Shown: piece by piece, positions 19,213 to 32,269 of the stretch | Layout of the letters: the number at the start of each line of letters is the position of its first letter | Numbering within the stretch: position 1 is the stretch's first letter | Assembly (NCBI GenBank): GCA_965219685.1 | Contig: CBDCOH010000002.1 | Location: 480,001-544,000, forward strand | DNA length: 64,000 nucleotides | Origin: Candidatus Spongiisociaceae bacterium | Lineage (GTDB): Bacteria; Actinomycetota; Acidimicrobiia; Spongiisociales; Spongiisociaceae | Reading direction: 5' to 3' | Translations under genes and position numbers: made by a program | Notes under the pieces: generated by a model | Seen by the model: the letters and a program-made list of their open reading frames with translations, nothing else | The model's database searches: none | Told to the model about the DNA's origin: nothing

Positions 19213-19268
19213 TCACCACTCACCATTCACCATTCACCATTCACCATTCACTACTCACCATCCACTAC
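19213..19268. repeat. (TCACCAT)n heptamer array, ~8 units
   Basis: Seen directly at the stop of the 19265-20269 gene. Confidence 0.95.
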
Positions 19269-20269
19269 TCGCCTTGGGCGAGCGAGTCGTCCCCCTGCCC
19301 GCCTTCCTCTTCCTCCGGTTCGGCGAAGCCGCAGTCGAACACGGCTTCCTCGACATCCTGGCCTCCGAGCACCACCCGCTCGTAGAAGACCACCGCGGCG
19401 ATCTCGTCGGGGCTGAGGGTGTCCTGGAAGGAAGGCATCTGCCCCCCGCTCCCGACCGCCTTTGCGGTATCCCCGTACGTAGCGCGGCCCTCGGACTGGA
19501 ATCCGGTGGTACCCAGTGCTACCCATTCGATGTGGTCGGTGCACATCGCGAAGGTTGAGAGAACCTCTCCCGCCAGAGCGGGTCCGGAGCCGCCCTCCCC
19601 GCCCGCGCCGTGGCATGAACTGCAACTGGAAGGCGCCGCGTACACCACGCTGGCTTCTCCGATGAGTGCCCGCACGTCCACTCCGCCCGCACCGCCGCCG
19701 GCGGCGAACTCCGACCCGTCGCAGTTCTCGACGGCTCCGGACAGGCGATCGACTGCGAGTTGGCCTCCCACCCCGCAGGTGGGGCCGTTGGCAAAGGTGA
19801 CCAGGTAGGTGAGGCCGATGAGGGGCACGGCGAAGAACAGCACCATGAGCCAGCGAGGTATCGCCGCGGCGATCCTCTCGGTGATCCCGGCGGTGGGGCC
19901 GGTGACGACAGCTTCGAAATCAAGGGCCTCCGCCACGCTGACCCGTTCGGGCGGCGGTGGGGCGCCGGTGAGCGTCGCGGCTTCGGTCACCGGCGCGGTC
20001 GGCACGGCGGCGGTCGGTTGAGCAACCGGTCCGGGAGCCGCCGGCGGTTCCGGCGGAGCCGGCTCAGGGGCCACCGGCGCGGGCGCGGCGGCAGGTGCCG
20101 CCTGGCGAGTTGCGCCTGCATCCGTGGGGGTGGGCGCGCCGCCGGCCCACGCGGCCAGCACATCCTCCACCGGGACACCGTCCGCGGCGGCTCGGGCTTC
20201 TGCCGACCGCTCGATCAGGTGCTCGGGGCTACCGAGCTTGGCCGCCGCCGCCGAGAGGAGGTCGCTCAT
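19265..20269 (-). CDS. Membrane-anchored monoheme cytochrome c with N-terminal PEHL module and Pro/Ala linker
   Basis: CSSCH heme motif, QMPSF axial Met, one TM helix. Confidence 0.9.
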   Translation of the reverse strand: MSDLLSAAAAKLGSPEHLIERSAEARAAADGVPVEDVLAAWAGGAPTPTDAGATRQAAPAAAPAPVAPEPAPPEPPAAPGPVAQPTAAVPTAPVTEAATLTGAPPPPERVSVAEALDFEAVVTGPTAGITERIAAAIPRWLMVLFFAVPLIGLTYLVTFANGPTCGVGGQLAVDRLSGAVENCDGSEFAAGGGAGGVDVRALIGEASVVYAAPSSCSSCHGAGGEGGSGPALAGEVLSTFAMCTDHIEWVALGTTGFQSEGRATYGDTAKAVGSGGQMPSFQDTLSPDEIAAVVFYERVVLGGQDVEEAVFDCGFAEPEEEEGGQGDDSLAQGE

Positions 20270-20384
20270 GCGGTCGCCTCGCTCTGCTCAGGTGTCGGGT
20301 GCCTGGTGCCTGGTGCGGTTGCGTGCAGGTTGCTCAGGTCGGACATCGGAAGTCGGGCATGGGACAAGAGCGCCACCGTCATCG

Positions 20385-21200
20385 TCACCTTGATTCCGCC
20401 AGGTAGGTGGCCAACGCCGTCAGGTCGGTGTCCGAAAGGTGGCTGTAAGAAGGATGCATGCCCTCAGGCAAGACCTGCCCTGGATGCGTCAAGAACGCGA
20501 TGAACTCGTCGGCCGTGGCCGGTCCATCCTCACCTCCGTAGGAGGGACGAGCGCCGACGTGGGCCAGGTCGGGGCCGATCCGCTGCACGCCGAACGTGGA
20601 GGTGCTCAGCGCGTCGGCGAAGGTCTCGGTGGCCGGGCCCAGTCCCACATCGGCCAAAACAGGTCGCACGAGTTGCGTATGGCAGTAGCCGCAGCCGTGG
20701 TTCAGGTAGACAGCCCGTCCCCGCTCGCCAAGATCGGTCAGTTGGGCGTCGGGAACCAGATGGCGGTAGTCGCCGCCGGCGTTGAACGGTCCGATCAATG
20801 TGATCAGCAGTCCGAGCAGGAAGAGACCCGCCATCATCAGCCAGGTGCGTGCCGGGTGGAAGCGTCGCCCTTCCAGGATGGGCGTGGCCTTGCTGCGCGC
20901 GGGGGCGACCGTCACCGCAGGGGCCGCCACCTCCGGCACGATCGTGGCGACGGCGGCAGGGGTGGGCGCGGTGGTCGCGGCCTGCGCGACGGGAGCGGGG
21001 GCCGGAGCCGCCGGCTCGGGTTGGGGCGGAGCGGTCTGTGTGGTGGGAGCGGGCGTCGGAGGGGGTGCTCCGCCCCCCCAGGCGCTGAGAACGGCCTCGT
21101 AGGTCGTGCCGTCGGCCTCGGCTCGCGCTTGGGCTGCACGCTCCACGAGGTGCTCGGGTGCTCCGAGGGCCGCCGCGGCCGCCGCTAGCAGGTCACTCAT
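20385..21200 (-). CDS. ccoO: cbb3-type oxidase subunit II (CcoO/FixO)-like cytochrome c with N-terminal PEHL module
   Basis: GRAVY...GCGYCHTQLVRP and QRIGPDLAHVG CcoO signatures. Confidence 0.85.
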   Translation of the reverse strand: MSDLLAAAAAALGAPEHLVERAAQARAEADGTTYEAVLSAWGGGAPPPTPAPTTQTAPPQPEPAAPAPAPVAQAATTAPTPAAVATIVPEVAAPAVTVAPARSKATPILEGRRFHPARTWLMMAGLFLLGLLITLIGPFNAGGDYRHLVPDAQLTDLGERGRAVYLNHGCGYCHTQLVRPVLADVGLGPATETFADALSTSTFGVQRIGPDLAHVGARPSYGGEDGPATADEFIAFLTHPGQVLPEGMHPSYSHLSDTDLTALATYLAESR

Positions 21201-22653
21201 CGCCGGATCCCGGTCGCTCGGCGGCGCTAACCGGCATCAGCATCTCGACCGCGCGGGCCGGTCCCGCCACGTAGGTTCCTATGGCTGCCCAAGCCAGCAG
21301 GGCGATCCCGACCACGGCCATCACTGAGGCGAGGGCGGCCAGCGTGAACAGGACATCTACCGTGGCGAGCGTCTCGGAGAACCCGCTCCCGCTGTTGGCA
21401 CGGGCGCCCGAGGCGGTAGCCCAGTTCCAGGTGAGACCTGCAACCAGGCCGGCCAGTGCCATCGCGCCGGCGGCAACGCCGCCGCCCCAAAGCACCAGCC
21501 GGAGCCCGCGATTCACCGTTTCGATGCCGGAGAACTCCCGTCCGGTGGTGCGGGGGAACGCGTAGTAGACGAATCCCAGGCCGAGAACCGGTATCGCCAC
21601 CAGCATGAGGCCGGTGGCCAACCCGTCGTGCCAAGTGGTGAGACCCACCACTGCCGCTACAGAGCGAAAGCCGGATGCACCGATCAGGAAGGTGATCAGG
21701 CTGTACGCGATCGTTCCGACCAGCACCATGCGCGTGACCACGCTCTGGCGGGCGGTCTCCCACTCACCCGAAAGCGTCAGCCCGATGTTGGCCGCCACGG
21801 TCAGTGCCGACAGGGCCAGCCCCATGGAAGCGGCAACGGCGACCGTCTCGGTCCAGTCGGGGGCGGGACCGCCCAGGTACCGGGCGGGGGTGGCCAGCAG
21901 AGCGGTACCGGCGAGAGTCCAGAATCCTGCCCGGGCCAGCGGGCCGGAGAAGAGGGGCCGGCCACTTTCCTTGACGACGATGTAGTAGGCGCCCCCGATA
22001 GCAGCCGCCGGGAAGGCCAGCGTCAGCATCCCCCCCGCCACCACGCTTGTCTGGAGGAACGGGCCGATCCCTCCCAGGCCGGGGATGCTCCCCGTCACGT
22101 AGAGCGCCGGATACCACCACACCGCTCCTACGACGTACAGAAGGGAGACGTAGGTTCCCTGTTCGGTCCGCTCCCGAATCATCGAGGTCACGATCAGGGC
22201 GGGAACGAGCGAAGCCGCCGCGAGCGGCCAGTCCAGCAGCGGGGGGAACTCGGCCAGTTCCGATCCCGCCGGACCGCGGAACAGGACGACCAGCACTCCG
22301 ACCACGACCAGGCCGGCATGGGCGGTTCCCGACAGCAGAGCCACCGTCTGGCGGCGCAGGGGGACACCCACAAGCCGCGGCGTCAGGTAGTACACGACGG
22401 CATGGGTGAGGGTTCCGCCGAATCCGTAGACGAGCATGGACCACGCCGCCGGGCGGAGGCGCCCGAAGGAAAGGAAGGCCGTGTCCGCGAACAGGGTCGG
22501 TACGGCCAGCTTGATGAACATCACTGACAGCAGGCCTGCACCCGCCAGCGCCAGGAGGCAGGCGAGAAGCATGAGGCCGGACGCAGCGACCTCGCGCCTG
22601 TCCTCCCAGGTTCCGGTATCCGGAGAACCACCGTCGGTCTGCTCGTGCTCCAA
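21193..22653 (-). CDS. cbb3-type oxidase subunit I (CcoN)-like membrane protein lacking the canonical His ligands
   Basis: LSFGRLRP, ELAEFP, YVSL, YYIV.K.SGRPLFS..L...GFW, YYAFPRTTGRE CcoN landmarks; ~12 TM; His ligand motifs absent. Confidence 0.8.
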   Translation of the reverse strand: MEHEQTDGGSPDTGTWEDRREVAASGLMLLACLLALAGAGLLSVMFIKLAVPTLFADTAFLSFGRLRPAAWSMLVYGFGGTLTHAVVYYLTPRLVGVPLRRQTVALLSGTAHAGLVVVGVLVVLFRGPAGSELAEFPPLLDWPLAAASLVPALIVTSMIRERTEQGTYVSLLYVVGAVWWYPALYVTGSIPGLGGIGPFLQTSVVAGGMLTLAFPAAAIGGAYYIVVKESGRPLFSGPLARAGFWTLAGTALLATPARYLGGPAPDWTETVAVAASMGLALSALTVAANIGLTLSGEWETARQSVVTRMVLVGTIAYSLITFLIGASGFRSVAAVVGLTTWHDGLATGLMLVAIPVLGLGFVYYAFPRTTGREFSGIETVNRGLRLVLWGGGVAAGAMALAGLVAGLTWNWATASGARANSGSGFSETLATVDVLFTLAALASVMAVVGIALLAWAAIGTYVAGPARAVEMLMPVSAAERPGSGDE

Positions 22654-22984
22654 GCCCGATTACTCCTCGTGTCCCGTTGCTTGCCTCAGCGTAGATTAAC
22701 GTCGTGACGACGCCCGTCATCCGGCCCCGGAGGCCCACGTTCGTGGCGGTCCGCTCGGCTCACCCGTTCCCGCCCACCGGGCGGGACCCCTGGGCTTCCG
22801 AGGATACGCCGCCGACGGATGGGTTTAGCGAGCGACCACCTTTCTGCTTCAATGGGTTGGACTGATCGGAATGATTCCGAGCCCGTAGACGGTGGGTCCG
22901 CGCGGTCTCCGATGAGGGAGAGAAACCGGGCGGTCGGCAGGGCCGGGCGACCCGAGTCGAGGCGACACGGAGGCTAACTACCAG

Positions 22985-23758
22985 ATGGTGCAACGCAGGC
23001 TTCGGCAGATGAGCGGCAAGGAGCGAGCGCTCGTCGGCTGGGCGTTGTTTGTTCTGGGCCTGGGAGCCTTGGTCGTGGGCATCTGGTTCAACCACTACTC
23101 GAACTTCCCGTCGTTCGAGACCGTCACCATCGCCGTGGACGAGGCGTCGGGAGTCCGCGCCGGCGATCGCATCATGTACGAGCGCGAGATGCGGACAGTG
23201 GCCAGGACGCCGTCGGTGGACCCGTCCCTTCCGCAGGTTCCGGTGGACATGATGGTCGAAGTCGACAACTTCGGCTGGTTGCCGCGCGACTGCCTGATCC
23301 GGGGCGGCGACTGGTGCCTTCCGTGGTCCACCCTGGGCCACCTGGTCGCCTTCGGCGGAAGCCAGTTGATGCTCCTCGGAGTTGCCATCGCGGTGATTCT
23401 CGGCAGGCGAATGACCTGGTCGGTGGCTTCCCTGGCCGCTTTCCTCGCGATGCTCGAGCTGGTAATCCTGCTGGGAACGGTGGCGTCGGAGTGGCTCAAC
23501 CTGGCCCAAGGGCCCCTCAACTGGACCGAGCAGAACGACGCCTTCGGCATCTGGGCTCCACTCGTGCTCGGCAACCAGGTGGGGGTCAGTTGGGGCGCCA
23601 TCAAGGACTTCGTGTCGATCAACTACAACATGGGCGCCCTCACCTTTATCATTCTCTTCGCCCGTTGGATCCAGGGCTTCGGTGGTCCGATGCCCGAGGA
23701 GAAGCAGTCGCAGACGGTCTCGCCGTACGGGCGCCCGCTGGTCAAAGGAGCCGAGTAG
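22985..23758 (+). CDS. Membrane protein heading the Rieske/cytochrome b operon
   Basis: Multi-TM; C-terminal SPYGRPLVKG; stop abuts the ferredoxin ATG. Confidence 0.75.
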   Translation: MVQRRLRQMSGKERALVGWALFVLGLGALVVGIWFNHYSNFPSFETVTIAVDEASGVRAGDRIMYEREMRTVARTPSVDPSLPQVPVDMMVEVDNFGWLPRDCLIRGGDWCLPWSTLGHLVAFGGSQLMLLGVAIAVILGRRMTWSVASLAAFLAMLELVILLGTVASEWLNLAQGPLNWTEQNDAFGIWAPLVLGNQVGVSWGAIKDFVSINYNMGALTFIILFARWIQGFGGPMPEEKQSQTVSPYGRPLVKGAE

Positions 23759-24214
23759 ATGGCCAAGTCCGAGGTCTGGTTCGAGACGCCGCCGTTCCGT
23801 GATGACTACCAATTGGCGATGGTGGATAGCGATTACGTCCAGAGCCAGGTCCGGCCCAAGCAGTTCCTCCACATCAACCAGGCCGAGTGCATCCTGTGTG
23901 AGGGCTGTGTCGACATTTGCCCGTGGAAGTGCATCCACTACCTATCCCTCGACGCCATCGACGAGGCGCACGGTGTCGACCACCCGACTGACAGCTCGGA
24001 CAACCTGGGGTTCTTCGTAGTCGACGAGTACGAGTGCACCAGGTGCCAGCTCTGCATCGACCGGTGCCCCACGAACGTGATTTCGATCGGTAAGTTCGCG
24101 GGGTCGGTCACCGATACGGCGATGAACGCGGGGTTGATAGATCAGGCGCCCTGGGACCAGGACACCGGTGCCCGTGACTTCAAGAACGGCTACACCTACG
24201 GCATGCGCTGGTAG
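23759..24214 (+). CDS. 2x[4Fe-4S] ferredoxin
   Basis: CILCEGCVDICP and CTRCQLCIDRCP. Confidence 0.93.
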   Translation: MAKSEVWFETPPFRDDYQLAMVDSDYVQSQVRPKQFLHINQAECILCEGCVDICPWKCIHYLSLDAIDEAHGVDHPTDSSDNLGFFVVDEYECTRCQLCIDRCPTNVISIGKFAGSVTDTAMNAGLIDQAPWDQDTGARDFKNGYTYGMRW

Positions 24215-24229
24215 ACGGAGGCTCGAGTA

Positions 24230-25003
24230 ATGGTGCTGGGAGATGGTATGAAGCTAAAGGAGCGGGTGTCGGACGCCGCCGACTCCTTCCGTCGCAGCGC
24301 CTTCTGGGAGTCGATGTTCCGTCCGGGGTCTCCCTTCAAGCGAGGGTACAGCGACAGCCCACGTAACCGTTCTTACGTAATCATGAACAACGTCCTGTAT
24401 CACCTGCACCCGGTCAAGGTCAAACGGCACGCGGTCCGACTCTCCTACACGCTGTGCCTCGGTGGTACGAGCTTCTTCCTGTTCATCCTGCTCACGATCA
24501 CCGGCATCTTCCTCATGTTCTACTACCGACCCACCTCCCCTGCCGCATATATCGATGTCGAGGCGCTCTCGACCTCGGTCGCCTTCGGATCGCTGGTCCG
24601 CAACCTCCACCGGTGGGGCGCCCACCTGATGGTCCTGACGGTCTTCCTGCACATGTCGAGGGTGTTCTACCACGGCGCGTACAAGCCCCCGCGCGAGTTC
24701 AACTGGGTGGTGGGCGTGGTCCTCCTGCTGCTGACCCTTCTGCTCTCCTTCACCGGTTACCTGCTGCCGTGGGACCAGTTGGCGCTGTGGGCGGTGACGG
24801 TGGGCACCAACATGGCCGGCTTCACGCCCGTCTTCGGCAACCAGGTGAAGTTCGCCCTGCTGGGCGGGATCGAAGTGACCGGGAATACGCTGCTGCGTTT
24901 CTACGTCCTCCACGTCCTGTTCCTGCCTTTCGTGATCGTCATCTTCATGGCGGTTCACTTCTGGCGGGTGCGCAAGGACGGTGGGATATCAGGGCCGCTA
25001 TAG
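24230..25003 (+). CDS. petB: Cytochrome b, b6-type split N-terminal subunit
   Basis: TLCLGG (heme ci Cys), [33 protein letters not shown]....[13 protein letters not shown]. Confidence 0.92.
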
Positions 25004-25020
25004 GAGACGTCTGAGAACCG

Positions 25021-25926
25021 ATGGTGGAGATACCCGAACACCTGCTACGACGCTCAGCGGAGGCGAAGGCGAAGGCTCTCGGCGTTCCGGTGGACCAGGT
25101 GCTGGCCGAGATGCGAGGTGAGACCGCCCCGCAAGCAGCGGAGGCACCGGCCGCACCGCCGGTTCCACCACCCCTGTCGACCCCGGATCCCGCGGCTCCG
25201 GTCGTCCCGGCGCCGCCCGCTCCCGTTCCACCGGCGCCGGCGCCCCCGCCGGATCCGGTAGCCGAGACGCCTGCGCCGGTGGCGGTCGTCGAGGAGGCAC
25301 CTGTGGCGGCGGCCACCACGGTCACGCCGCCCGTGTCGGGCAACGGCGCCGCGACCACGGTCTCCCCACGTCCGGTGGCGCCACCGGAGGAGATACCGGA
25401 GGGAGTGAGACCCCAGCGCCTGCTCACGGTGGTGAAGGCGCGGGCCATCCAGCAGGTCAAGGCCACGCCCACCGACAAGGTCAACACCTGGCCTCACCTG
25501 ATGATCGCCGAGTTCACGGCGTTGATGGTGGTCACCGCGGCTCTGATCGTCCTGTCGGTGATCCTCCAGGCGCCACTACTGGAGTTGGCCAACTTCAACG
25601 AGACGCCGAACCCGTCGAAGGCGCCGTGGTACTTCCTCGGCTTGCAGGAACTGCTCTCCTACTACGACCCCCAGGTCGCAGGCGTGATCATCCCGACCAT
25701 CACCGGGCTGCTGGGTTTCATGGCAATTCCCTACGTGGACCGCAACCCCTCCACCAAGCCCTCGGACCGCAAGTTCGCAATCATGCTGTTCACGCTCTTC
25801 CTCGCCGGATCCGCGACGCTCACGCTGCTGGGGACCCTGTTCAGGGGTCCCGGCTTCAACTTCACGTACCCGTGGGCCGACGGGATCTGGTTCGATGACC
25901 TCAAGGACTGGGTGCACTTCGAATGA
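25021..25926 (+). CDS. petD: Cytochrome b subunit IV (PetD/QcrC-like) with N-terminal PEHL module and Pro-rich linker
   Basis: [31 protein letters not shown] (PEWY equivalent), IPYVDRNP. Confidence 0.88.
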
Positions 25927-26834
25927 CCACCCTCCAGTTGCTGATCGTGGCGATCTCCGGAGTCGTGGTGGTAGGTGTGCTGGGGGCATTCGTGATCGCC
26001 TACCGCCGCACCGCCGGCCCGACCCGACCGTCGCGATCCTGGAGGTCGGAGGTGTCGCGCGAGACGCGTAAGGCGGATCGGTCGGCAATGCCGTCGAGAC
26101 TGGTCGTCCGGCGCCCGGAGCCCGCTCCCGAGCCAGAGCCCGAGGCCGACCCGACCGTCAGCGGCGTTCCCGACGAACCGGAGGTGTCACCGGCCCCGGT
26201 GGCTGTGCAGACGGTGGAAGTGCTGCGCGTCGAGGAACTCTCGCCCCAGGAGGCCGGCGTCAACCGCCGCCAGTTCTTCACCCGGGCGCTCGGCATCACG
26301 TTCGGTGCCTTCCTGGGCCTCAACGGCATCTCCTACCTGGCGTTCCTCTGGCCCCGCCTGTCCGGCGGGTTCGGGTCGGACATCGATGTCGGCGCCCTCG
26401 CCGATCTGCAGTCCGAGGTGATCCAGGACGATGGGTCGATACTCCCCAAGTTCGTGCCCGAGGCCCGGGCCTACATCATCCCCTTCGCCGAGTCCGACAT
26501 GTCCCGATCGCAGTTCGGGGGGATGCCGGTCGTGGCCGGCGGGCTCTCCGCTCTGTTCCAGCGGTGCGTCCACCTCGGTTGCCGGGTTCCGTGGTGCGAG
26601 ACCTCGCAGGGCTTCGAATGCCCCTGCCACGGCTCGAAGTACAACTACGCCGGGGAGTACGAGGCGGGTCCGGCGCCCCGCAACCTGGACAGGTTCGAAG
26701 TGTTAGACGTCAACGGCCGCATGATCGTCAAGACCGGCACGATCTTCCAGACTGCCCGGGCCATCGCCAAGACCGTGTCTTACCCCCAGGGCCCCTCGTG
26801 CATCGCCCTGACGACCACTGACGAGGAGGCCTAG
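25923..26834 (+). CDS. petC: Rieske 2Fe-2S subunit
   Basis: NRRQF Tat-like motif, CVHLGC and CPCHGSKY boxes, GPAPRNLD. Confidence 0.95.
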
Positions 26835-26838
26835 GCCG

Positions 26839-28305
26839 GTGGCAACCCTGGTCGTGACCATCGTCGCCCTGGGCGCGATCGGTTGGTTCGCCTATCTCGT
26901 GGGCTCCGGTTCGCGGCGGGACCGCAAGGATCCTGTGCCGGCCAACCTGTCCGCCTCCCAGACCGACGACGAGATGGAGACCAGGCGTCTCGACCGGACG
27001 CTGGTCGGCGCGGTGCTCAGCGCGGCCTTCCTCACCCTGGCCATGCCCATCTACTACCTCGGGGAACTCGACCGGCAAGAGGGCTTCGTGGAGGAATTCG
27101 GCGATGCGTCCCTGGAGCGGGGGCACCATGTCTGGGAGGAGTTCGGTTGCGGCGACTGCCACGGGGTGGCGGCCGGAGGCGGCGTGGCGGCGTTCCTCGA
27201 GGAACGTTCCCAGGTCAACGTGGCGGGCTGGGCCGCTCCGGCACTCGACGACATCTTCTACCGGTACGACCGGGACGAGGTCGCGTTCTGGATCGTCTAC
27301 GGCCGGGCAAACTCTCCGATGCCTCCATGGGGCCTGGACGGCGGGGGCCCTCTGAACAGCCAGCAGATCGACGACTTGCTCAACTACATCCAGTCGATCC
27401 AGATCGACCAACCGGGCGCTCTGCTCAAGATCGAAGGCTCCGTGAACGGAGCGGTCAGCCGCCTGGACGGAGCGGCCGACGCGGTCGACGCCCAGATCTC
27501 CGAGCAACTGCGACTCATCGAGACCATAGAGACAGCCGGGCCGACCTCCGTGGTGATCTCCGATCTCGCGGAACGCGCCCGTGATCTGCTGGACGGGGCC
27601 GGATCCGGCATCGACACCGATGGCGACGGCCTCTCCGACGTGACCGAGATCGGCCTCACAGCTGTCCTGCAGGAGGCTCTCGCGGGTGGATTCGTCGCCA
27701 CCGAACTCACTTTCGACCCCCGCAACGCCGAGACGTTGATCGGTATCCGGGACGGCTCGTCGGCTGCCAGGGCCGTTGGAGACCTCGAGTCGAGCGCCAC
27801 CTCGCTCACCATAACCCTCCAGAACCAGGAGGTCCTCCTGGAGCAGGCCCGGTTCGGGCTGGGATTCCTGGAGGCTGCCGCTCGCAACGAACGCTGGACG
27901 GTGGACATGGACGCGGTGGCCCGGGCGACCTTCGACGGTGACGGAGAAGTGGCGGCCCGGGCAGTGAGTCTCTACAACGCCTACTGCGCCAGATGCCACA
28001 CCGCCGGGTACTCGGCCGGGCCCTCCTTCCAGCAGGCCCAGGCGTCCGGAGCTCTGGGTCCCTCCCTGCGCGACGGACGGGCGCTCACCCAGTTCCTCAC
28101 CCATGAGGACATGTACGACTTCATCTCGGTCGGTTCCGTGTCGGGACAGGGTTACGGCGTAAACGGGGTGGGCTCGGGACGGATGCCCGGATTCGGTATG
28201 GTGCTGTCCGCAGAGGATCTCGATCTGATCGTCCAGTACCTCCGCGGGGTGACCCTGGACGGCAATGACTACGTGGACGGAAGCGACCCGGGAGGAGGGG
28301 AGTAG
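26839..28305 (+). CDS. Membrane-anchored diheme cytochrome c
   Basis: CGDCH and CARCH, each with a downstream MP axial Met; long helical inter-heme insert. Confidence 0.9.
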   Translation: MATLVVTIVALGAIGWFAYLVGSGSRRDRKDPVPANLSASQTDDEMETRRLDRTLVGAVLSAAFLTLAMPIYYLGELDRQEGFVEEFGDASLERGHHVWEEFGCGDCHGVAAGGGVAAFLEERSQVNVAGWAAPALDDIFYRYDRDEVAFWIVYGRANSPMPPWGLDGGGPLNSQQIDDLLNYIQSIQIDQPGALLKIEGSVNGAVSRLDGAADAVDAQISEQLRLIETIETAGPTSVVISDLAERARDLLDGAGSGIDTDGDGLSDVTEIGLTAVLQEALAGGFVATELTFDPRNAETLIGIRDGSSAARAVGDLESSATSLTITLQNQEVLLEQARFGLGFLEAAARNERWTVDMDAVARATFDGDGEVAARAVSLYNAYCARCHTAGYSAGPSFQQAQASGALGPSLRDGRALTQFLTHEDMYDFISVGSVSGQGYGVNGVGSGRMPGFGMVLSAEDLDLIVQYLRGVTLDGNDYVDGSDPGGGE

Positions 28306-28658
28306 TGCGCGAGCTGTTCCGGGCCCTGCTGTCGCAGAATCTCCTGTTCACGGGGATCGTGCTCACCCTCGCCGCCGTCCTGGTGTTCTTCGGCAGCGTC
28401 TACCTGCTGCAGTACACCAACCTCGGCAAGCGGCTGGCGATCCTCGTATCCGGGGCAGGCATCTTCGGATGGACCACGATCAACTCGATCCTGTTCGTCC
28501 TCTACGCACCCCGAGGACCCCGCCCGGTGGATTTCGAAGGCTTGAACGCATTCGAGATCAGGATCATCCCGGGCGCCTTCACGGCCGCCTCGGCGATCCT
28601 CTTCACGATGTTCCTGGTAGCACTCCACCGCTACGAGAGGGACCAGGAACGCGAATAG
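28305..28658 (+). CDS. Small 3-TM membrane protein, last gene of the bc operon
   Basis: Start overlaps the previous stop; hydrophobic. Confidence 0.75.
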   Translation: MRELFRALLSQNLLFTGIVLTLAAVLVFFGSVYLLQYTNLGKRLAILVSGAGIFGWTTINSILFVLYAPRGPRPVDFEGLNAFEIRIIPGAFTAASAILFTMFLVALHRYERDQERE

Positions 28659-30913: not shown

Positions 30914-32269
30914 TCAGGGTGGGGCGCGGTTGGTGGGTGTGTGTATCGCTTTGAGTACGGCGTGGATGTGGGGGTCGGGTTCGGGTGGCTGGTGGCTGCA
31001 GGTTCGTGTTCTTGGTGGGATGAGCCGTCGGCGTCGGGGTGGGGATTGGGGGTCTATGCGCATGCCGCGGCGGTGTACGGCGACGTGGTGGTGCCACCAG
31101 CACAGCGTGGTGAGGTTTTCGGCTGTGTTGGTGCCGCCTTGGGATCGGGGGGTGATGTGGTGTGCTTCGAGGCGGTAGGTGGAGGTGCATCCGTCGATGG
31201 TGCATCCGTCGTCGCGGGCGAGGACGGCTCGGCGCAGGGATGGGCGCATCGAGGTGGTGGTTCCGTGGTGGAGGATGTTCTGCCCGGCGACGGTGATGAT
31301 CTCGGTGGTGCCGACGCATTGGATGAGGTCTACGCTGTCGGGTCCTACCCTGGCTCCGGCAAGGATGGCTGCTCCTTGTTCGTTGCCGGACGTCTCGGAG
31401 AGGGGCTGGTTCGCGACGATCATGAGCGCGGGTTCGCGTCTGCGGCGGGCCGCCCGGAAGCGTTCCGCGGTGGTGGCGGGTTGGGGGGTGCGGTCTAGTT
31501 CGTCTTGGCATAGAGTGGTTAGAGCGAGGGCTCGTCTCTGTGCAGCGTTGGGACGGGTTTCGCCTGCGGGTACCAGATTCTCGCCTCTTCGGTCCAAGCC
31601 TTGGCGGCATATGTCTGCTTCGAGGGCGCCGAGCCGCCCGTTCACCTGCACGTGGCTGCCGTCCAAGGAAGGCTGCAACATCAGGTATTGGCCTTCGAAC
31701 ACTGCCCGTTCGTCGTGGCGGCTCATCTTGCGATGGGACTGGAGTACCCGTTTGACGGCTTCGAGGTCCAGGTCCCGGCTGGCTTCGATCACCTCCATCG
31801 AGGCGCCCGCCTCGGCCAGGCGCTCCTCGGCCAGTGCACGCTCGTAGGAGACAGCACCTGCGCGGATCGCCTCGATCTGGTGATCCGCCAACCGCCCGGC
31901 CAGATAGACCAGGTCGCGGGCTGTGGAGCGGCGCACATCGAGGCGGGAGGCGACCATCTCTGTGGGGTTGCGGTACCCCAACCGGGCCGCCGCGCCCCGC
32001 CGCAGCATGTGCCGCACCCAGCCGAGTTGGTCACCGCGGGCCCGGCTGACCTTGGCTTGCGCGCGGACGAGGGCGGCTTCTGCTTTGGCGTCCTCCACAT
32101 CGGCGTGGGTGTAGCCACCATCGGCTGCCATGTGCCGGGCCCGGTCGTAGACCCGCTGCCGTTCCCGCTGGTAGGGGCTCGCGAACAGGTCTGCGTCCGG
32201 TCCTCCACTGTTGGCAGTGGTGGGCTGGACGGTTTCTTGGTCCGGATAGTCGAGTAGGTAATCGAACAT
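30914..32269 (-). CDS. DUF222-like/HNH endonuclease protein (13E12-repeat-like), possibly mobile
   Basis: RRAVLARDDGC..DGC...LEAHHI.P.SQGG....NLTTLCWWHH...H HNH domain; helical N-terminal region. Confidence 0.85.
   Translation of the reverse strand: MFDYLLDYPDQETVQPTTANSGGPDADLFASPYQRERQRVYDRARHMAADGGYTHADVEDAKAEAALVRAQAKVSRARGDQLGWVRHMLRRGAAARLGYRNPTEMVASRLDVRRSTARDLVYLAGRLADHQIEAIRAGAVSYERALAEERLAEAGASMEVIEASRDLDLEAVKRVLQSHRKMSRHDERAVFEGQYLMLQPSLDGSHVQVNGRLGALEADICRQGLDRRGENLVPAGETRPNAAQRRALALTTLCQDELDRTPQPATTAERFRAARRRREPALMIVANQPLSETSGNEQGAAILAGARVGPDSVDLIQCVGTTEIITVAGQNILHHGTTTSMRPSLRRAVLARDDGCTIDGCTSTYRLEAHHITPRSQGGTNTAENLTTLCWWHHHVAVHRRGMRIDPQSPPRRRRLIPPRTRTCSHQPPEPDPHIHAVLKAIHTPTNRAPP

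Follow-up and report, generated by a model that had tools for sequence, protein, structure and literature searches.

Analysis of a 64,000-nucleotide stretch of the genome of a Candidatus Spongiisociaceae bacterium (class Acidimicrobiia; contig CBDCOH010000002.1, positions 480,001 to 544,000 of the forward strand; hereafter the window) showed that two divergently transcribed sets of respiratory genes encode three membrane proteins which begin with copies of the same module of about 45 residues. A fourth copy was found elsewhere in the genome on a membrane protein termed fam4. The long form of the module is predicted to be a previously undescribed small three-helix domain, and it is tentatively read here as a domain that recruits or tethers parts of the respiratory chain to one another.

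Module copies and carrier proteins

The three N-terminal sequences given in an earlier reading of the window made without database searches (the sequence-only reading) were found exactly in the translated open reading frames (ORFs). Its claim that one homologous module stands at the N-terminus of subunits from two divergent operons was borne out, with the other two copies showing 70% and 50% identity to the first. On the reverse strand the carriers were a membrane-anchored mono-haem cytochrome c (19265-20269, 334 aa) and a CcoO-like mono-haem protein (20385-21200, 271 aa), the start codon of which overlaps the stop codon of the gene for a 12-helix CcoN-like protein (21193-22653, reverse strand, 486 aa). 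On the forward strand the carrier was a subunit IV/PetD-like protein (25021-25926, 301 aa). A hidden Markov model (HMM) of the three copies was used to search the 60,331 ORFs of 40 aa or more in a six-frame translation of the whole 4.42-Mb genome and recovered the three inputs and a fourth copy at E = 3.5e-13, which lies far beyond chance because the next match reached only E = 1.2. The genome was found to hold four copies of the module and no more, all on respiratory membrane proteins.

The long form occupied residues 1-44 of cytochrome c (20138-20269, reverse strand, 103.7 bits to the three-copy HMM) and of the CcoO-like protein (21069-21200, reverse strand, 98.1 bits), while a short form occupied residues 1-33 of subunit IV (25021-25119, forward strand, 69 bits). 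The short form lacks helix 1 and has Met in place of the invariant Trp41; the stop-to-stop ORF of subunit IV has just three in-frame codons ahead of the ATG. The conserved core of the module consisted of P15, R21, S22, A23, A25, R26, A27, G31, W41 and G43. The label 'PEHL' used in the sequence-only reading had to be given up, as the His is not conserved and relatives show PEAL, PESL, PEIL and others. Covariation of this His among the four copies was also considered and dropped, since in subunit IV it was His in 6 of 12 genomes and Ser in the other 6, regardless of the long forms. The long forms carry more acidic than basic residues (3+/7- in cytochrome c, 2+/6- in CcoO and 3+/6- in fam4) and the subunit IV form is neutral (5+/5-).

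The assignment of the carriers to protein families was supported by profile matches downstream of the module. Cytochrome c matched PF13442 over residues 208-296 with 34.8 bits (cut-off 27). The CcoO-like protein matched FixO (PF02433) from residue 153 with 44 bits (cut-off 29.6), and has a CGYCH haem site and one helix at 121-139; it is a divergent FixO member, with 50.2 bits to the equivalog TIGR00781 against 200.65. Subunit IV matched PF00032 from residue 190 with 31.8 bits (cut-off 20.7) and has helices at 160-178, 219-237 and 252-270, and its gene lies beside those for cytochrome b6 and the Rieske protein. The N-termini of the three carriers were covered by no Pfam or NCBIfam family.

Hydropathy confirmed that each module is followed by a long Pro/Ala linker, here called the arm, of 76-126 residues and then by the first membrane helix. 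The arm of cytochrome c (residues 45-140, 96 residues, Pro 23%, Ala 28%; 19850-20137, reverse strand) leads to the anchor helix at 141-159 and a periplasmic mono-haem domain with a CSSCH site (together 19265-19849, reverse strand; hydropathy and PF13442). That of the CcoO-like protein (residues 45-120, 76 residues, Pro 25%, Ala 28%; 20841-21068, reverse strand) leads to the anchor at 121-139 and the mono-haem FixO domain (together 20385-20840, reverse strand; PF02433 and hydropathy). In subunit IV the arm (residues 34-159, 126 residues, Pro 27%, Ala 20%; 25120-25497, forward strand) is followed by a membrane core of three helices (25498-25926, forward strand; PF00032, NCBIfam ExtQ-type and hydropathy), and in fam4 an arm at residues 49-127 (79 residues) is followed by the first membrane helix at 128-146. 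Arg or Lys stands immediately ahead of the first membrane helix in each carrier. Domains with c-type haem lie in the periplasm, and the n-side of the membrane is where subunit IV begins, so that, by these topology rules, the modules of all four carriers should lie in the cytoplasm, as the sequence-only reading had placed its three.

The fourth carrier, fam4

The gene for fam4 (391 aa) lies on the reverse strand at C2:2556251-2557519 (L001:8249-9424), about 2.06 Mb from the window. The protein represents an uncharacterised family of about 390 aa and has seven membrane helices (AlphaFold2 pLDDT 75.6 for the full-length model). In the source genome it was found 2.4 kb past the end of a caa3-type oxidase operon with the order COX2 with fused cytochrome c, COX1, COX3 and CtaG. 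The distance between fam4 and this operon was 0.1-3 kb in 6 of 6 other genomes tested (7 of 7 with the source genome), and in two genomes of about 1 Mb fam4 directly followed CtaG on the same strand. The position of fam4 beside the caa3 operon widened the link between the module and the respiratory chain beyond the two operons of the sequence-only reading. In the genomes examined, fam4 was located hundreds of kb from the other carriers. A gene for FtsH is present about 1.1 kb from fam4 in the source genome.

No Pfam family and no fold relative were found for fam4, the best Foldseek match being at E 0.5 and the best VIA match at Z 7.5 with an rmsd of 34.8. Its homologue P0067 in the ESM Atlas fell only in clusters named 'hypothetical protein' and 'MedDCM-OCT-S29-C46-cds2 family'. 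The membrane part of fam4 was not found in genomes G013, G018, G038, G110 and G016 in a search with a single query and no positive control.

Distribution of the module

A word-indexed search with residues 1-45 showed the module in 132 proteins among candidates of 183-585 aa. All listed matches of at least 300 aa fell within cytochrome c, CcoO, PetD and fam4, and the names on the matches were all of Acidimicrobiia or of Actinomycetota metagenome bins. A profile search of 1.84 billion representatives produced 457 proteins at E <= 1e-3, 315 of them at E <= 1e-10. The best 150 of the 457 comprised 26 cytochrome c, 14 CcoO, 13 PetD and 9 fam4 proteins, 80 fragments (fewer than 120 residues after the module; many metagenome matches are truncated) and 8 unclassified proteins, with no unrelated carrier family among them. 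Pfam matches on 75 of the best 150 (the longer or multi-copy ones) were to cytochrome c, FixO and PetD domains only, except for weak oddities on P0125 and P0136. On relatives of cytochrome c and PetD the copy number ranged from 1 to 7, with the tandem modules separated by arms; variable tandem copy number is typical of valency-dependent binding modules.

In genomes, where absence means not found in the sampled genomes searched, a module match was obtained in 109 of 201 members of the class. It was conserved in 47 of the 49 genomes of the same order (source genome included), 30 of the 49 holding exactly four matches. Four was the usual number of copies in a genome, down to genomes of about 1 Mb. 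The family with genomes of about 1 Mb showed a match in 47/47, so the module survives genome streamlining, and among the remaining 105 genomes of the class 15 had merely single or weak matches. When 301 genomes from across the phylum were searched with the short form, 14 gave a match, all of them members of the class, and no match came from the 279 genomes outside it. Overall, the HMM survey that the sequence-only reading had proposed placed the module on four respiratory-chain families and, among the genomes sampled, only in Acidimicrobiia; in these searches the module was neither a known domain, nor missing from orthologues, nor found on unrelated proteins.

In other Acidimicrobiia families the weak matches consisted of a single N-terminal helix (MxEIPEHLLKRS..ARAKA) on PetD and anchored cytochrome c, with two helices once. 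This one-helix form may be an ancestral or reduced form of the module. In genomes G016, G167, G006, G012 and G003 the minimal helix, in some cases present twice, is followed by acidic or Gly-rich arms.

Gene context was inspected in detail in 16 genomes, the source genome included. Twelve of the 16 showed cytochrome c, CcoO, PetD and fam4 with a single module apiece, and in the 11 of these other than the source genome (11/11) CcoO lay beside cytochrome c, with PetD about 3.4-4 kb off on the opposite strand, the divergent arrangement of the window. The other four genomes, from two families, had cytochrome c with 2-4 modules and PetD with 0-2, and a module-bearing CcoO or fam4 was not found in them. 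In these two families, which belong to the order, the number of modules per genome was still near four, and their CcoN-like open frames (genomes G013, G110 and G038) were 620-810 aa long, possibly CcoN-CcoO fusions.

Predicted fold and search for known relatives

An AlphaFold2 model of the long form, built from a 29-row alignment of module sequences, showed helices at 3-12, 16-30 and 34-42 and no strand (pLDDT 88.5, pTM 0.66). A second, independent support came from the full-length fam4 model, at the start of which the three helices recurred. The invariant residues R21, S22 and R26 are of surface type on this compact, confidently predicted fold.

Canonical family profiles contained no such module, in agreement with the sequence-only reading, and no characterised domain was matched in Pfam, NCBIfam or the Protein Data Bank (PDB). 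A PDB sequence search with the module gave a best E of 0.33, and Foldseek against the PDB gave no match at E <= 0.001, its top rows being designed helical toroids. The wide structural search with VIA-align reached a best Z of 5.3, also on a designed toroid. Among natural structures the best matches were the three-helix domains of ANTAR and of Rpa1 (AROD), with Z 4.1-4.8 in this search, Z 4.1-5.1 overall, and 43-48 aligned residues; these values lie far below kinship level for helical bundles, identity was 2-15%, and the contexts (RNA-binding regulators and replication protein A) are unrelated. When 29 isolated modules were searched against Pfam at E up to 5, only three single-member matches appeared, the best at E 0.067. 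Matches to Xre-like-HTH and HTH_23 on the six-copy protein P0125 had no single significant stretch. As no meaningful match was obtained in the PDB, Foldseek or Pfam searches, the module in its modelled long form is taken to be an undescribed small helical domain.

The sequence-only reading had likened the module, by its PExL-helix-GV-helix pattern, to ribbon-helix-helix (RHH) folds, which share a PExL...G...helix pattern and a small size with it. For the long form this likeness was not upheld, since no strand was present in either AlphaFold2 long-form model and RHH structures reached only Z 2.7-2.9 over about 32 residues, with no significant Foldseek match. No RHH family of Pfam was matched by the 29 modules (E up to 5) or by the whole proteins (E up to 0.01), and the acidic surface of the module is a further difference.

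Complex prediction for the long form with the short subunit IV form gave an ipSAE of 0.00 in two runs for which controls were not run, and is evidence neither way. In full-text literature searches and in passages of PMC12008989, neither the module nor an acidimicrobial CcoN devoid of its ligands was found described.

Concerted evolution of the long forms

The module DNA of CcoO and cytochrome c was at least 98% identical in 5 of the 12 genomes with the four-protein set and 59-71% identical in the other seven (67% in the window). In the five genomes the identical tracts began exactly at the start codon, covered the module and extended into the arm, for a length of about 226-295 nt, and the sequences upstream were not alike, which points to recent gene conversion between the two genes. 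These five genomes (G005, G089, G141, G023 and G186) belong to at least three genera.

At the protein level, the cytochrome c and CcoO modules showed a mean amino-acid identity of 0.82 within genomes and 0.58 between genomes. The corresponding values were 0.62 and 0.52 for cytochrome c and fam4, and 0.63 and 0.52 for CcoO and fam4. Label permutation gave p = 2e-4 for each pair of long forms, in a test that ignores phylogeny and whose result is inflated by genome kinship. Subunit IV compared with any long form gave 0.39-0.42 within and 0.40-0.43 between genomes, and its orthologues were 0.82 identical to one another, compared with 0.49-0.60 among orthologues of the long forms. Where the residues were identical, synonymous codons agreed in 128 of 307 cases against 121 expected and in 114 of 314 against 124 expected for the pairs with fam4, a rough estimate because codon usage was estimated from short stretches. 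Synonymous codons were no more alike than codon usage predicts, so the likeness to fam4 is held at the protein level; it reflects co-evolution or, alternatively, an old conversion that purifying selection has since preserved, and the data do not separate the two. Judged from these comparisons, the long forms are interchangeable between carriers and evolve together.

The CcoN-like protein

The CcoN-like protein was aligned to the CcoN chain 9g6b_A, and the six canonical His positions, which we take from the P. stutzeri structure to be the ligands of haem b, haem b3 and CuB, were occupied by Ala, Arg, Gly or a gap. Only four His are present in the entire protein, which scored 68.5 bits to COX1 and 113.7 bits to TIGR00780, the CcoN equivalog with a cut-off of 583. 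With all six His ligands replaced, the unit of CcoN-like protein, CcoO and cytochrome c is no terminal oxidase and more probably serves as a scaffold on which two cytochromes of c type are mounted. Homologues of the CcoN-like protein, conserved next to CcoO and cytochrome c, were found in 78 of the 201 genomes of the class, including 20/20 in family f2, 6/6 in f5, 8/9 in f4 and 33/47 in f12, and none were found in families f9, f14, f15 and f17 of this sample. The families that hold the homologues are those with the full module.

A proposed tethering domain and competing explanations

The carriers lie on one electron path, their arms are long and flexible, the long forms are interchangeable and the valency is variable; for these reasons the module is read as a recruiting or tethering domain that would hold the b6c complex near its membrane-bound cytochrome c acceptors and near the caa3 oxidase. 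We regard this reading as plausible, if short of probable. The module is also under strong selection: it is kept in streamlined genomes and its core is invariant, and the arms are unalignable. The data show the domain itself with its carriers, topology, distribution, concerted evolution and variable copy number; that it binds protein, which partner it would bind and how this would affect respiration are inferred.

The tether would work as follows. A cytoplasmic interaction domain of about 45 residues, borne on a Pro/Ala arm that is flexible and about 80-125 residues long, would mark four membrane proteins of one electron path, namely subunit IV of b6c, the CcoO-like protein and the anchored cytochrome c of the cofactor-less CcoN-like unit, and fam4. 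The long form would have three helices and the short form of subunit IV helices 2 and 3 only. The arms would span the cytoplasmic face of the membrane, where the modules would bind one another or a common multivalent partner and so hold the quinol oxidase (b6c), the cytochrome c acceptors and the terminal oxidase in proximity. Direct docking of module on module, which is what the sequence-only reading had proposed, is a sub-case of the tether and in itself appears unlikely. An equally doubtful extension, in which the modules serve as docking tags, would have a class-specific megacomplex of b6c, the cofactor-less cbb3-derived cytochrome c scaffold and the caa3 oxidase tied together from the cytoplasm, with tandem duplication tuning the valency and concerted evolution keeping the tags matched.

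Several points weigh against the tether. The subunit IV form did not covary with the long forms (0.39-0.42 against 0.40-0.43), so the sequences lend no support to a short form that touches the long forms directly and co-evolves with them. Gene conversion alone, without selection for binding, can yield concerted evolution; the permutation tests ignore phylogeny, and drift of amino-acid composition in small genomes could raise the likeness within genomes. Other families have one helix only, so the essential element may be a short helix and not a folded domain, and a short helix may suit a recognition signal as well as a tether. Finally, three of the four carriers have an acidic module, and no known fold relative serves as a guide.

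The competing explanation that fared best, still judged improbable, is that the module is a signal for biogenesis or quality control, read by machinery for targeting, insertion, cofactor assembly or proteolysis (FtsH, for example) and without a role in the mature complexes. All carriers require N-in insertion, the module always stands at or near the extreme N-terminus and is the first part out of the ribosome, and the one-helix MxEIPEHLLKRS with which PetD and cytochrome c begin in other families resembles a linear recognition motif. The neighbouring FtsH gene would also fit, but this adjacency is known from the source genome alone. Arrays of up to seven internal tandem copies are unexpected for a targeting signal, however, and arms of 76-126 residues would be needless for one. 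Moreover, cytochrome b6, the Rieske protein, di-haem cytochrome c and the CcoN-like protein belong to the same complexes and lack the module, and the carriers are not all c-type cytochromes, so that the module is no signal for haem attachment.

Somewhat less likely again is a regulatory arm acting within each complex. The module would fold back onto its parent complex from the cytoplasmic side and would stabilise or gate it without bridging to another; examples of docking sites would be the Qi/haem ci region of b6c and the CcoN-like protein that lacks cofactors. The near-constant subunit IV form (0.82), which shows no covariation, behaves as it should if bound to a conserved surface of its own complex, and the families with the module are also those with the CcoN-like protein (present in 78 of 201 genomes). 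However, very long arms and tandem copies are needless for reaching a neighbouring surface, the interchangeable module is found on proteins of at least three genetic units, and the minimal motif also turns up in families for which the search gave no CcoN-like gene.

A neutral extension of the N-terminus, copied among neighbouring genes by gene conversion and harmless because it hangs from a disordered arm, would account for the recent conversion tracts between CcoO and cytochrome c in five of 12 genomes. It is already disfavoured and very improbable, since the module is kept in all 47 genomes of about 1 Mb, the core residues are invariant across orders next to arms that cannot be aligned, protein likeness persists where synonymous sites are randomised, and fam4 lies hundreds of kb from the other carriers. 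Least credible is a dimerising, possibly nucleic-acid-binding domain of RHH type: the short-form pattern recalls the strand, helix A, Gly turn and helix B of that fold and RHH entries occur in the fold list (Z 2.7-2.9), but the two independent AlphaFold2 models of the long form have three helices and no strand, Pfam gave no RHH match, the RHH alignments span helices 1-2 and not the helices predicted by the sequence pattern, and a net charge of -3 to -4 on the long forms is poor for DNA binding.

Comparison with known systems

For the tethering reading, the closest functional analogy is the peripheral subunit-binding domain (PSBD) of the E2 chains of 2-oxo acid dehydrogenases, a helical domain of about 35-45 residues which has conserved Arg residues, is carried on long, flexible Ala/Pro-rich linkers and brings partners to a core complex; E2 chains also vary the count of their tethered domains. 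The analogy carries no claim of membership, and dockerin-type tags may equally be likened to the module. PSBD has two helices and belongs to a soluble enzyme, whereas the module has three and is N-terminal on membrane respiratory subunits, and the 29 modules gave no Pfam match to PSBD at E up to 5. PSBD was not among the 50 structural matches listed, an absence that does not exclude it.

Supercomplexes of the respiratory chain offer a second comparison. In Rhodobacter, membrane-anchored cytochrome cy and the CcoP/CcoH anchors take part in a bc1-cbb3 supercomplex. To our knowledge, contact between respiratory complexes without soluble cytochrome c is known only for a few rigid supercomplexes. 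The bc1-cbb3 and the actinobacterial bcc-aa3 supercomplexes answer the same biological problem, namely how quinol oxidase, membrane-bound cytochrome c and terminal oxidase stay together where soluble cytochrome c is not used (PMC4505504, PMC10556555). Supercomplexes known so far are held by transmembrane and periplasmic contacts, in contrast to the shared cytoplasmic domain on a flexible arm seen here, and the cbb3-like subunit I of the window lacks the metal ligands.

One undescribed domain is thus common to subunits of three genetically separate respiratory units. If the module is a tether, it would provide a flexible organisation of the electron-transport chain from the cytoplasmic side, and fam4 and the cofactor-less relative of the cbb3 oxidase would gain a function; if the docking tags were also real, this would be a supercomplex principle unseen in any solved respiratory chain. 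Apart from function, the new domain family marks the respiratory chain of a widespread and mostly uncultured marine and soil class.

Other genes in the window

The operon of subunit IV begins with genes for a 257-aa membrane protein without a family and a 2x[4Fe-4S] ferredoxin (together 22985-24214, forward strand). The ferredoxin gene (151 aa, 23759-24214, forward strand) stands within the Rieske/b6c operon, immediately before the cytochrome b6 gene, which suggests an extra cytoplasmic iron-sulfur subunit on the b6c complex. Cytochrome b6 (24230-25003, forward strand) matched PF00033 with 162 bits and NF040969 with 306.8 bits (cut-off 290). It has a TLCLGG motif with a Cys at the haem ci-binding position of b6f-type complexes. 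The NCBIfam matches of cytochrome b6 and subunit IV bear the names ExtP and ExtQ, which originate from a Geobacter gene cluster (PMC5877670). Downstream of subunit IV, genes for the Rieske protein, a di-haem cytochrome c and a 117-aa membrane protein were identified (25923-28658, forward strand), all without the module. Finally, an ORF of 451 aa (30914-32269, reverse strand) showed in its translation an HNH-type motif near the C-terminus (HHITPRSQGG...CWWHHHVAVH).

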